The notes under the pieces are model-generated. The model searched no databases, was not told the origin of the DNA, and saw only the letters and a program-made list of their open reading frames with translations. Below are positions 45,230-49,720 of a stretch of 64,000 nt of DNA, in pieces. The stretch's first letter is position 1. Each line of letters starts with the position of its first letter. A program made the position numbers and the translations under genes. Origin of the DNA: Escherichia phage TH09; the sequence record MT446387.1; one strand, 5' to 3'.

Positions 45230-45453
45230 TGAGATATAGCATTGATGATGCTTTTAATTATGAAGAAGAATTTGAAACGGAAATTCAATTCTTAATGAAA
45301 AAGCATAATCTTAAGCGTCAGGATATTCGTATCCTGGCCGACCACCCGTGCGGTGAAGATGTCCTTTATATTAAAGGAAAATTTGCCGGATATCTTGATG
45401 AATATTTTTATTCTAAAGATATGGGCATTGATATGCATATGAGAGTTGTATAA
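45229..45453 (+). CDS. Hypothetical protein (74 aa)
   Basis: ORF track; ATGA overlap with uvsY. Confidence 0.55.
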   Translation: MRYSIDDAFNYEEEFETEIQFLMKKHNLKRQDIRILADHPCGEDVLYIKGKFAGYLDEYFYSKDMGIDMHMRVV

Positions 45454-45960: not shown

Positions 45961-47472
45961 TTATAAATTAACTGTTTTCATTACGTAATTAAATTTTTCA
46001 TCTGCGTAGCGCTGAATACGATCAATGCCGTGTTTTAAAAGATAGTTCAAATGAACGTATTTCTTTTTCGTATTAGCAGATTTTGGCTTAACACCACAAT
46101 CATCGATGAGGTCCCAGACTGTTGCTATTGTCTTAGAACCATGCTTACGTAATACACGACCGATTGTTTGTAATACAATGATTTTTGATTTAACGCCGTG
46201 CGCTAAAACAACATGATGCAGATTTTTAACTGAAATACCAGTAGAAAATACACCATAACTCGCTACTATAATTATTCCTTTACCATTTTCAGCTAAGGTT
46301 TTCATTATATTGCGGGTTTCAGTATCAACTTCCCCTGATACGTAATAAACTTTATCGTATTCATTTTTAATTAAATCGAAAATAGCTTTACCGTGCGATA
46401 CGTGTTTAAACATGACAAAAGCGTTTTCATCTTTTTGTGCAAGCTTAATAGCTAATTTAGCGATCCATTTATTTCTTTTACTGAGCCCAGTAATAATTTT
46501 TATTTCTTCTTGGTAAGTTTTTCCCTTTAATTTAGTAGTGAACTCATCGGGATAGCGAAGAAAAATACTATTAATTTTTAACTCAGTTACTTGTCCATCT
46601 TCCATTAATTTAGAGGTCGTTACTGGCTTAAATATTTCACCAAACATTCCAACATACTGCATGATATTGGCTTTGCCGTCACGTAATGAACCTGATAGAC
46701 CAAATTTAAACATGCAGTTATTTAAACCTGATATGATAGATGAAATACTTTTTCCTGTAGCAAGATGGCATTCATCATTCATCATCATTCCAAACTGTGA
46801 GAACCATTCTTTCGGCTGTTTTACTACAGTTTGCCATGTACCAACAACGACTGGTGCATCATTTTTATATTTATCATCTTTTGATGCTCCACCGCCGATT
46901 TTCTTTATCATTGCATGACTGAATAAACGATAGTCAACAAAGTCATCAGCCATCTGAGTTGTCAGAGCAGTTGTTGGAACAATGATAAGAATTTTACCTT
47001 CATAATTTTCCAAATAATACCGAGCAAGCAAAGCTTGAATTAAAGATTTACCTGCAGATGTTGGAAGATTAAGAATTCTACGACGATTAACTAATCCTTC
47101 GAACACTGCATCTTTTTGATACCAGTGCGGTTCAATTCTTTTATTTCCTGAATAGATTTCTAATTTAGAAAGCCATTCATCAAAATCTTTTCTTGATAAT
47201 TCTTCTTTTTCGTTAATTTGCGGGTCAATCCAGGCTTTATAGCCAAAGTTATCACAGAACTTTTTAATTTGCCCGACCAAGCCGAATGGAAGAAGGCGAT
47301 TATAATCTAAAAGACGGATTCGTCCATCCCAGTGGCCATATCTGTACTTCGGATTAAAACGATACCCATCAGCTTCAAAGCTAAAGAAATCACGGAGTTC
47401 ATGAAATGTACTTTCTTCACAATCAATTCTCACGTGACTAAAATCATAAAAATGTACTTTAATGTCAGTCAT
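45961..47472 (-). CDS. uvsW: UvsW DNA/RNA helicase (503 aa)
   Basis: Walker A SAGKS and DECH helicase motifs; size as originally annotated T4 UvsW. Confidence 0.9.
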   Translation of the reverse strand: MTDIKVHFYDFSHVRIDCEESTFHELRDFFSFEADGYRFNPKYRYGHWDGRIRLLDYNRLLPFGLVGQIKKFCDNFGYKAWIDPQINEKEELSRKDFDEWLSKLEIYSGNKRIEPHWYQKDAVFEGLVNRRRILNLPTSAGKSLIQALLARYYLENYEGKILIIVPTTALTTQMADDFVDYRLFSHAMIKKIGGGASKDDKYKNDAPVVVGTWQTVVKQPKEWFSQFGMMMNDECHLATGKSISSIISGLNNCMFKFGLSGSLRDGKANIMQYVGMFGEIFKPVTTSKLMEDGQVTELKINSIFLRYPDEFTTKLKGKTYQEEIKIITGLSKRNKWIAKLAIKLAQKDENAFVMFKHVSHGKAIFDLIKNEYDKVYYVSGEVDTETRNIMKTLAENGKGIIIVASYGVFSTGISVKNLHHVVLAHGVKSKIIVLQTIGRVLRKHGSKTIATVWDLIDDCGVKPKSANTKKKYVHLNYLLKHGIDRIQRYADEKFNYVMKTVNL

Positions 47473-47501: not shown

Positions 47502-47509
47502 TATTTATA
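47502..47509 (-). promoter_or_regulatory. Late promoter TATAAATA for uvsW
   Basis: plus tatttata about 30 nt upstream of the uvsW ATG. Confidence 0.65.
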
Positions 47510-47522
47510 CTGAGGAAATATT

Positions 47523-48203
47523 ATGATAGATAAAGATTATATTGCAGAGCTGAAGGCTCTTGATGATAACAAAGAAGCTAAAGCTAAATTAGCTGAATAT
47601 GCTGAGCAGTTTGGTATAAAGGTCAAAAAGAATAAATCTTTTGATAATATCGTTGTTGATATTGAAGAAGCCCTCCAGAAGCTCGCTAGTGAACCTATGC
47701 CAGAGACTGATGGGTTATCTATTAAAGACTTAATTGATGCTGCTGATGCTGCAGAGGGGTTAAAATATGACGATGAAGAAGTCAATCCAGAGGCAGCACT
47801 TCTGATTGATTCTCCGGTTAAATCTGACATTAAAATTGAAGTAGTAGAAACGGATAAAATTCCTGAAAATACCGATGTTTTGATTGAAGATACTCCTTTT
47901 GTTGAAGAAAAATTCGAGCAGGCTGTAGCTGAGATTATTGAATCTGAAAAGCTGTCTGTATTTACTCTTCCGGAAAACTTTAGTCCGAATCTTCAGCTGA
48001 TTGGAAAAAATCCAGGATTCTGCACCGTTCCTTGGTGGATTTACCAGTGGATTGCTGAAACTCCGGATTGGAAATCTCACCCAACTAGTTTTGAGCATGC
48101 GTCAGCACACCAAACTTTATTTAGCTTAATTTATTACATTAACCGTGACGGATCAGTTTTAATTCGTGAAACACGCAATTCTTCTTTCGTAACATTAAAA
48201 TAA
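47523..48203 (+). CDS. inh: Inh, inhibitor of prohead protease (226 aa)
   Basis: 226 aa as T4 Inh; synteny next to hoc. Confidence 0.8.
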   Translation: MIDKDYIAELKALDDNKEAKAKLAEYAEQFGIKVKKNKSFDNIVVDIEEALQKLASEPMPETDGLSIKDLIDAADAAEGLKYDDEEVNPEAALLIDSPVKSDIKIEVVETDKIPENTDVLIEDTPFVEEKFEQAVAEIIESEKLSVFTLPENFSPNLQLIGKNPGFCTVPWWIYQWIAETPDWKSHPTSFEHASAHQTLFSLIYYINRDGSVLIRETRNSSFVTLK

Positions 48204-48212
48204 GGATAACTT

Positions 48213-49631
48213 ATGACTTTTACAGTTGATATAACTCCTAAAACACCTACTGGAGTTATAGATCAGACTCAGCAGTTTACTGCTACACCCAGTGGTCAAA
48301 CTGGAGATGGACCTATTACCTATGCTTGGACTGTTGATGATGCACCGCAGGAAGAAACGTCTGCAACTTTTAGTTATGTACTAAAAGGTCCTGCTGGACA
48401 AAAGACTATTAAGGTAGTTGCAACAAATCCAGTTCCTGATTCTGAAGCTGAAACAGCTGAAATTAGTACAACTATCACAGTTCAAAATAAGACACAGACA
48501 ACTACCTTGGCAGTAACTCCTGATAGTCCTGCTGCTGGAGTGATTGGAACAGCTGTTGAATTTACCGCTGCCTTAGCTTCACAGCCATCAGGTGCAAACG
48601 CTACGTATCAATGGCACGTTGACGGTTCTCCTGTAGACGAAGCAACTGACGCTACATTCAATTACACTCCTGACACAAGCGGAGTTAAAACAATTAAGTG
48701 TGTAGCTCAAGTAACCGCGACAGATTATGATACAAAGGAAGTTACTTCCAATGAAGTGTCACTGACTGTTAATAAAAAGACGCAGACAACTACCTTAGCA
48801 GTAACTCCTGATAGTCCTTCAGCTGGAGTAATTGGAACCCCAGTTCAATTTACTGCTGCCTTGGTTTCTCAACCTGTTGGAGCGTCTGCTACATATAAAT
48901 GGTATGTAGATGATTCACAAGTTGGTGGAGAAACTAACTCTACATTTAACTATACTCCAACTACAAGTGGAGTAAAAAGAATTAAATGCGTAGCCCAAGT
49001 AACTGCTGAAAATTACAATGAAAAGGAAGTTACTTCGAATGAAGTATCATTAACAGTTAATAAGAAGACAATGAATCCACAGGTTACATTGACTCCTCCT
49101 TCTATTAACGTTCAACAAGATGCTTCGGCTACATTTACTGCTAATGTCACTGATGCTCCAGAAGAAGCGCAAATTGCGTATTCATGGAAGAAAGATTCTT
49201 CTCCTGTAGAAGGGTCAACTAATGTATATACCGTTGATACCTCATCTATTGGAAGTCAAACTATTGAAGTTACTGCAACTGTTACTGCTGCTGATTATGA
49301 TAGCAAAACTATTACGGCGGAAGGTCAAGTTCAGGTAACTGATAAAGTTGCTCCAGAGCCAGAAGGTGAATTACCTTATGTTCATCCTCTTCCACATCGT
49401 ACTTCAGCTTACATCTGGTGTGGTTGGTGGGTTATGGATGAAATCCAAAAAATGACCGAAGAAGGTAAAGATTGGAAAACTGAAGATCCAGATAGTAAAT
49501 ACTACCTGCATCGTTACACTCTTCAGAAGATGATGAAAGACTATCCAGAAGTTGATGTCCAAGAATCACGTAATGGATACATCATTCACAAAACTGCTTT
49601 AGAAACTGGTATAATCTATACCTATCCATAA
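48213..49631 (+). CDS. hoc: Highly immunogenic outer capsid protein Hoc with an extra Ig-like domain (472 aa)
   Basis: N-terminus MTFTVDITPKTPTGVIDQT; C-terminal capsid-binding region; 96 aa longer than the T4 Hoc I recall. Confidence 0.9.
   Translation: MTFTVDITPKTPTGVIDQTQQFTATPSGQTGDGPITYAWTVDDAPQEETSATFSYVLKGPAGQKTIKVVATNPVPDSEAETAEISTTITVQNKTQTTTLAVTPDSPAAGVIGTAVEFTAALASQPSGANATYQWHVDGSPVDEATDATFNYTPDTSGVKTIKCVAQVTATDYDTKEVTSNEVSLTVNKKTQTTTLAVTPDSPSAGVIGTPVQFTAALVSQPVGASATYKWYVDDSQVGGETNSTFNYTPTTSGVKRIKCVAQVTAENYNEKEVTSNEVSLTVNKKTMNPQVTLTPPSINVQQDASATFTANVTDAPEEAQIAYSWKKDSSPVEGSTNVYTVDTSSIGSQTIEVTATVTAADYDSKTITAEGQVQVTDKVAPEPEGELPYVHPLPHRTSAYIWCGWWVMDEIQKMTEEGKDWKTEDPDSKYYLHRYTLQKMMKDYPEVDVQESRNGYIIHKTALETGIIYTYP
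48489..49064 (+). repeat. Tandem in-frame duplication of a 288-bp (96-aa) domain module inside hoc
   Basis: Unit 1 48489-48776 and unit 2 48777-49064 both encode KTQTTTLAVTPDSP...KEVTSNEVSLTVNK; about 78% amino-acid identity. Confidence 0.9.
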
Positions 49632-49636
49632 TCATA

Positions 49637-49652
49637 AGGGGCTTCGGCCCCT
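49637..49652 (+). terminator. Terminator after hoc
   Basis: AGGGGC-uucg-GCCCCU followed by a U-rich tract. Confidence 0.75.
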
Positions 49653-49720
49653 TTCTTCATTTTGAAAGCACACAAAACACACTCAGAAAATGATGTATAT
49701 AATGGCACCAACTCGATAAC

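Follow-up and report, generated by a model that had tools for sequence, protein, structure and literature searches.

The window is the whole stretch of DNA that was analysed, 64,000 nucleotides of Escherichia phage TH09 (sequence record MT446387.1) read on one strand. The locus described here comprises the gene hoc, its upstream neighbour inh and the signals bordering the hoc reading frame, as follows:

47523..48203, + strand: inh (prohead protease inhibitor, hoc.1), directly upstream of hoc; a 226-aa ORF whose syntenic counterparts in RB6, moskry and teqhad bear the annotation inh
48202..48206, + strand: Shine-Dalgarno-like AAGGA, 6 nt before the ATG of hoc, in overlap with the stop codon of inh (taaggataactt-ATG), from direct reading of the sequence
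48213..49631, + strand: hoc, encoding the 472-aa highly immunogenic outer capsid protein, in its two-module (A-B) allele; from the ORF list and homology to T4 Hoc
49636..49663, + strand: intrinsic terminator (GGGGCTTCGGCCCC stem-loop and T-run), 5 nt past the hoc stop codon, with a 7-bp stem containing 5 GC pairs

The ORF list bears out the 472-aa length given to hoc (48213-49631) in a first-pass annotation of this DNA. When the 472-aa protein was used as a phmmer query, T4 Hoc was recovered from the PDB with E = 2.5e-222. The gene and hoc of Escherichia phage JLBYU22 (OK272484.1) are 100% identical; this phage shares 99.9% identity with the window across 22 kb, and no paper on it was found in the literature search. 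The gene order of the window, inh-hoc-24.3-24.2-rnlB, agrees with the annotated loci of RB6, teqhad and moskry, and the T4 record X14869 displays an annotated terminator at the position equivalent to 49636-49663. The AAGGA upstream of hoc probably acts as a ribosome-binding site. On the + strand, no T4 late-promoter core (TATAAATA) immediately precedes inh or hoc, the nearest site lying at 45449; a - strand copy is located near inh, at 47502-47509. In the search for a promoter upstream of hoc, the number of sigma-70-like matches was not above chance. Over the whole window the late-promoter core is present 19 times for 9.1 expected occurrences, a count reached by none of 100 shuffles. A uvsW-like helicase ORF (503 aa, 45961-47472, - strand) adjoins inh in the window and likewise in slur14, KMB26 and teqhad. 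In RB6 (1-185 of the segment analysed), the homing endonuclease segE is inserted beside inh, a presence/absence polymorphism of a mobile endonuclease at the hoc locus.

The T4 protein was described in the first-pass annotation as 376 aa long with a single module of the kind found twice in the window, and PDB entry 5vf3_Z and GenBank X14869 both agree. The alignment with T4 Hoc that was proposed as a check pairs T4 residues 1-128 and 93-376 with residues 1-128 and 189-472 of the window protein, respectively. The latter can be divided into five parts:

48213..48488, + strand: Ig-like domain 1 (residues 1-92), an AlphaFold2 beta-sandwich with pLDDT ~90, aligning with T4 Hoc residues 1-92
48489..48776, + strand: module A (residues 93-188), first-position lineage, "extra" with respect to T4/RB6-type Hoc; PKD/Ig Pfam matches and AlphaFold2 strands at 98-187
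48777..49064, + strand: module B (residues 189-284), orthologous, from nucleotide identity, to the single domain 2 of RB6 and in large part to that of T4; Pfam PKD match
49065..49346, + strand: Ig-like domain 3 (residues 285-378), the counterpart of T4 domain 3, aligning with T4 residues 189-282; AlphaFold2 strands at 290-376 and Ig_3/I-set matches
49347..49628, + strand: C-terminal capsid-binding domain (residues 379-472), differing little from T4 residues 283-376

The Pfam PKD family matches residues 195-267 with 38.2 bits (cut-off 23.5), and the scores of Ig_2, Ig_3 and I-set lie slightly under their cut-offs. Domains 1 and 3 are only ~40% identical to modules A and B. The AlphaFold2 model, computed from a 43-sequence alignment with a mean pLDDT of 81.5, displays four beta-sandwich domains at approximately residues 1-91, 93-187, 189-283 and 286-376 (pLDDT ~85-96), followed by a C-terminal domain of low confidence. 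The extra module is thereby predicted to fold as a fourth Ig-like domain, consistent with the earlier claim of one more such domain than in T4. The top Foldseek matches against the PDB are four-Ig chains, namely Dscam1 Ig1-4, Sidekick Ig1-4 and ICAM-5 D1-D4, and RB49 Hoc (3SHS) is also matched with E = 6.7e-10. The capsid-contact and conserved residues of the T4 C-terminal domain have been listed by Fokine et al. (PMC10385173). All of the gp23-contact or conserved residues (16/16) are kept in the window protein, including Y293, H295, R300, W309, W310, D313 and E355-G359 in T4 numbering. The whole 472-aa protein has a pI of 4.47 and a net charge of -27, the corresponding values for T4 Hoc being 4.74 and -14. 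The predicted domains, the Foldseek and Pfam matches and the conserved capsid-contact residues together indicate an intact Hoc made of four Ig-like domains and a capsid anchor. Such a protein would be expected to dock as one monomer at the centre of each gp23 hexamer of the expanded capsid, as a non-essential decoration.

The repeat within hoc was delimited using Tandem Repeats Finder, which assigns to 48477-49070 a period of 288 bp, 2.1 copies, 76% matches and a score of 701, and a second repeat search recovers the same two 288-nt copies. The Tandem Repeats Finder register is 12 nt off from the 48489-48776/48777-49064 register retained here, such a choice being arbitrary in a tandem repeat. 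Compared in the latter register, the copies are identical at 220 of 288 nucleotides (76.4%) and at 75 of 96 amino acids (78.1%). Two adjacent 96-aa units with about 78% amino acid identity had been announced in the first-pass annotation and this figure stands, but their description as near-identical does not, as 68 of the 288 nucleotides differ. Of the 21 amino acid differences, 14 fall outside the predicted strands, with clusters in a loop at module residues ~45-55 and at ~77-81.

The same module type is found in longer arrays in other phages. The Hoc of slur14 (LN881736.1; 1932-3926 of the segment analysed) is 664 aa long and contains four tandem 96-aa modules, and that of KMB26 (OR539218.1; 937-2643 of the segment analysed) is 568 aa long and contains three. 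The four slur14 modules define the labels A to D, against which every module in the protein set was classed; at the protein level this assignment depends on a small number of residues, and the mosaic nature of many modules makes them ambiguous. The residues diagnostic of copy 1 versus copy 2 amounted to 1 usable position in a strict set and 6 in a relaxed set, and a nucleotide-level comparison was used instead. In this comparison, module A shares 84-91% identity with the first module of each of slur14, KMB26 and moskry (90-91% for slur14 and KMB26), versus 76% with module B. For module B, the values are 97% with the single RB6 module, 89% with that of T4 and 90-91% with module 2 of slur14 and of moskry. 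Modules 3 and 4 of slur14 pair with modules 2 and 3 of KMB26 at 95% and 99% nucleotide identity, respectively. Identities range from 84 to 99% inside module lineages and from 74 to 85% across them, and orthologous modules display dS values of 0.1-0.5 with omega values of 0.08-0.32.

The distribution of the longer Hoc was evaluated among database records, which are a biased sample of nature. The full hoc query is spanned in all of the best 60 phage records (60/60), in 59 of them as one 1419-1422-bp piece, so that at least 59 GenBank phages carry the 1419-bp gene, a lower bound obtained from the best 60 of 682 matching records. In an evenly spaced sample of these 682 records, the 1419-bp form accounts for 22 of 50 full-length matches and the 1131-bp T4 form for the remaining 28. 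When one module was used as the query, 887 places were matched in 616 records; 60 of the latter, sampled evenly, comprise 40, 18, 1 and 1 records with 1, 2, 3 and 4 places, respectively. At the protein level, the best 120 clusters are distributed into 82 of 371-379 aa, 30 of 468-472 aa and 8 of 568-570 aa. The lengths of 376, 472, 568 and 664 aa form a series corresponding to 1-4 modules (376 + 96n), the additional units being located between domain 1 and domain 3. A 472-aa Hoc is also found in the Mosigvirus moskry, whose record annotates the repeat, and the closest relatives of the window over 22 kb (~97.5% identity) include some phages with two modules and some with a region ~288 bp shorter. 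Frequencies were taken from the counts of places per record and from the evenly spaced samples; a BLAST count of multi-module alleles spanning the module junction was set aside because it joined out-of-order pieces into one place. Two or more modules are present in about 35-45% of related records. Given this proportion and the at least 59 records containing the same gene, the two-module Hoc is ordinary. The first-pass annotation had implied that it was a particularity of this phage, a view that does not survive the observation that relatives already possess a Hoc of about 472 aa with the same modules.

Single-module proteins carry A, B, C or D, and the eight unambiguous multi-module architectures (AB, AC, AD, BD, ABC, ABD, ACD and ABCD) are all colinear. 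The modules of T4, moskry and slur14, including slur14-C, are block mosaics; the switched blocks of T4, moskry and slur14-C imply that exchange among modules is common. The derivation of C and D as simple A/B hybrids, as would result from fresh gains by unequal crossover, was considered and rejected, both being intermixed mosaics with many private sites. The hoc gene of teqhad (MN895434.1; 1225-2355 of the segment analysed) contains a single module composed of ~215 nt of copy 1 type at its 5' side and ~70 nt of copy 2 type at its 3' side. Left of nt 212-218, a breakpoint picked post hoc, the teqhad module agrees with copy 1 at 46 of 50 informative sites, and right of it with copy 2 at 12 of 14; owing to that choice of breakpoint, the Fisher p-value is inflated. 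This chimera bears what appears to be the signature of an in-register crossover deleting exactly one unit, teqhad being the only clear loss recombinant examined. Domain 3 of teqhad is also unusually divergent from that of the window (dS 0.99) despite a 97.4% identical backbone.

A general model of the gene may be put forward on these grounds, at slightly less than even odds. The hoc gene of T-even coliphages would be a colinear cassette array. It would contain a maximum of four domain-2 Ig modules of ancient divergence, any subset of which may occur provided that their order is kept (A, B, C, D, AB, AC, AD, BD, ABC, ABD, ACD or ABCD), and segments would be exchanged between them by recombination. 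Selection by mucus glycans, bacterial surfaces or host antibodies would maintain the resulting standing polymorphism in fibre length and loop sequence, and teqhad would be an A/B deletion recombinant caught in this process. Neither the 376/472/568/664 series nor the colinear arrangement of A-D was found explicitly described in the searchable literature, whose coverage is incomplete. The colinear A-B-C-D module-cassette pattern is the sole modestly new point of the present analysis.

Differential loss from a longer array has to be weighed against repeated independent gains, by unequal crossover or by horizontal insertion of a cassette, into a one-module ancestor. Unequal crossover yields gain and loss products alike, single-module alleles are the majority, the mosaic modules attest to frequent exchange and distant Hoc homologues contain from 1 to 10 Ig domains (PMC10385173), all of which speak for gains. 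Repeated gains are nevertheless unlikely, since none of the eight unambiguous multi-module architectures departs from the module order, C and D lack the simple A/B hybrid structure expected of fresh gains and the one clear recombinant examined, that of teqhad, is a loss product. Furthermore, the divergence between lineages (74-85% nucleotide identity) is far older than that within lineages.

A recent tandem duplication specific to this phage, producing an unusual and unstable five-domain Hoc, would agree with the single module of the T4 reference and with a repeat that is tandem and exactly in frame. This is highly improbable. The copies differ at 24% of their nucleotides, with a dS of 1.12, a dN of 0.134 and a dN/dS of 0.12; their orthologues in other phages are 90-97% identical versus 76% for the neighbour copy; the longest exact in-register run is 21 nt; and at least 59 GenBank records display the same architecture, which also extends to a second genus. 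As each copy is closer to modules of other phages than to its neighbour, the duplication is older than the divergence of these phages. Judging from these substitution patterns, modules A and B are ancient paralogues, both under purifying selection. The mis-assembly of one module into two, also raised in the first-pass annotation, can be dismissed as practically nil in probability: assemblers can expand or collapse tandem repeats, but the duplicate would then be identical or nearly so, whereas the copies are 76% identical with differences in excess at third codon positions (15/12/41 at positions 1/2/3), the reading frame is intact and numerous genomes obtained independently in different laboratories share the two-module form, which is also seen in proteins from metagenome and bacterial assemblies.

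The recombinational instability attributed to the repeat needs to be qualified in the same way. With 76% identity and a longest exact in-register run of 21 nt, the copies would be poor recombination substrates, and the claim fails for a fresh, fragile repeat; it holds over evolutionary time, as illustrated by the teqhad chimera. In comparison with its closest non-identical relatives, hoc is 94-96% identical versus 97.5-97.8% for the surrounding 22 kb (38000-60000). Domain by domain, dN/dS is highest in domain 1 (0.23-0.36 in 5 of 6 comparisons) and lowest in the C-terminal domain (0.02-0.16).

The best explanation as a whole, in which the 472-aa ORF is an intact and ordinary Tequatrovirus hoc allele, is given a probability of about 0.9. 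Under this explanation, the fibre would be composed of Ig-like domain 1, the paralogous domain-2-type modules A then B, Ig-like domain 3 and the C-terminal domain docking at the centre of the gp23 hexamer. The two modules would have arisen by an ancient in-frame duplication of the 288-bp unit, predating the divergence of Tequatrovirus and Mosigvirus, and purifying selection would keep both of them. The hoc gene would then represent a population length polymorphism of 1-4 modules (376, 472, 568 and 664 aa), in which in-register homologous recombination between modules may cause the loss of units and the exchange of segments. The two-module Hoc is a common, ancient and already catalogued allele, and the variable domain number of Hoc is already published.

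The functional consequences of the extra module may be considered with reference to T4 Hoc, which has been modelled as a ~180 Å four-domain linear fibre (PMC10385173). By analogy, the extra module would lengthen this fibre by about one Ig domain (~40-45 Å) and place domain 1 further from the shell. It would also be expected to make the protein more negative by ~6 net charges, to offer another variable-loop surface and to duplicate the S-L-T motif, which is present in both modules at residues 183-185 and 279-281. The charge of Hoc bears on the clustering and dispersal as a function of pH that have been proposed (PMC10385173). The changes brought by the module would probably modulate weak adhesion to mucus and bacterial surfaces and pH-dependent dispersal, and not any essential function. 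Further background on the function of Hoc is available (PMC9271167). The S183-L184-T185 residues of PNJ-9 domain 2 have been mapped as a MUC2/fucose binding site (PMC11853027). PNJ-6 conserves these S-L-T residues, but its domain 2 was devoid of MUC2 binding, whereas domain 1 bound (PMC11150434). The notion that a two-module Hoc might possess a doubled MUC2 binding site is therefore speculative. QTGDG at 29-33 and D342, equivalent to T4 D246, were the other residues checked for conservation of glycan-binding motifs.

The window protein can be situated among the Hoc proteins already described. T4 Hoc (376 aa; PDB 5VF3 and 8T1X; X14869) is encoded by the same gene at the same locus, with a colinear and highly similar domain 1, domain 3 and C-terminal domain, and both proteins are acidic. 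It differs by the presence of one domain-2 module, mostly B-like with an A-like block near the 3' end, where the window displays A then B. The Hoc proteins of slur14 and KMB26 belong to the same family and share the 96-aa module type, their first modules being orthologous to A and the slur14 module 2 to B; they contain four (A-B-C-D) and three (A-C-D) modules, respectively, versus two in the window. The PNJ-9 variant Hoc is likewise a domain-number variant in a T4-like coliphage, with a domain-2 module ending in S-L-T. It has lost domain 3 and retains two Ig domains, whereas the window Hoc has gained a domain-2 module and has four; a Hoc lacking domain 3 has been studied by Fu et al. 2025 (PMC11853027). 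The Hoc-like protein of Klebsiella phage PMBT63 is a distant homologue with an insertion of another module lineage. It is 46% identical to T4 Hoc and contains an additional Ig-like domain with respect to the latter, domain-number variation being qualified as known in the same 2026 report (PMC13435897). The Hoc of Serratia phage Muldoon resembles that of the window by its Ig-like domains strung on a conserved C-terminal capsid anchor, the length of the fibre being free to vary, but it is 1174 aa long, contains 10 Ig-like domains and is only distantly related (PMC10385173). In the survey of Fokine et al. (2023), 650 Hoc homologues contained 1 to 10 Ig-like domains, with great variability even among close relatives of T4 (PMC10385173).

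The discovery value of the two-module gene is small, the exact gene being already in GenBank (JLBYU22) and the 472-aa form being common. Its practical relevance concerns Hoc-based display and vaccine platforms as well as studies of how phages adhere to mucus. The natural alleles, in which a near-identical backbone bears 3, 4, 5 or 6 Ig domains, constitute a ready-made series, which is usable for examining the effects of fibre length and domain-2 dosage on adhesion, dispersal and immunogenicity.

A number of irregular database entries were encountered in the course of these comparisons. A cluster of 472-aa Hoc is named "endonuclease [Shigella sonnei]", and many others bear the name "PKD domain-containing protein [Escherichia coli]", an indication that phage contigs are filed in bacterial assemblies. 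MG010123.1, a 32-kb record labelled "Staphylococcus phage SAJK-IND", contains a T4-like hoc with 93.9% identity and is probably mislabelled or contaminated. In FriedrichMiescher (MZ501066), 101117BS1 (MZ234018), T6 (NC_054907), SfPhi01 (LC465543), vb_GEC_SH_GT (OR887633) and SCS4 (ON506924), hoc is annotated as two CDSs or as "part 1 / part 2". These split annotations suggest frameshifts or interruptions, due either to real pseudogenisation of a non-essential gene or to sequencing errors. Finally, the module region of GiZh (NC_054903.1) is annotated as "direct repeat sequence5 posible binding site of StbAB", an odd description for a coding Ig module.
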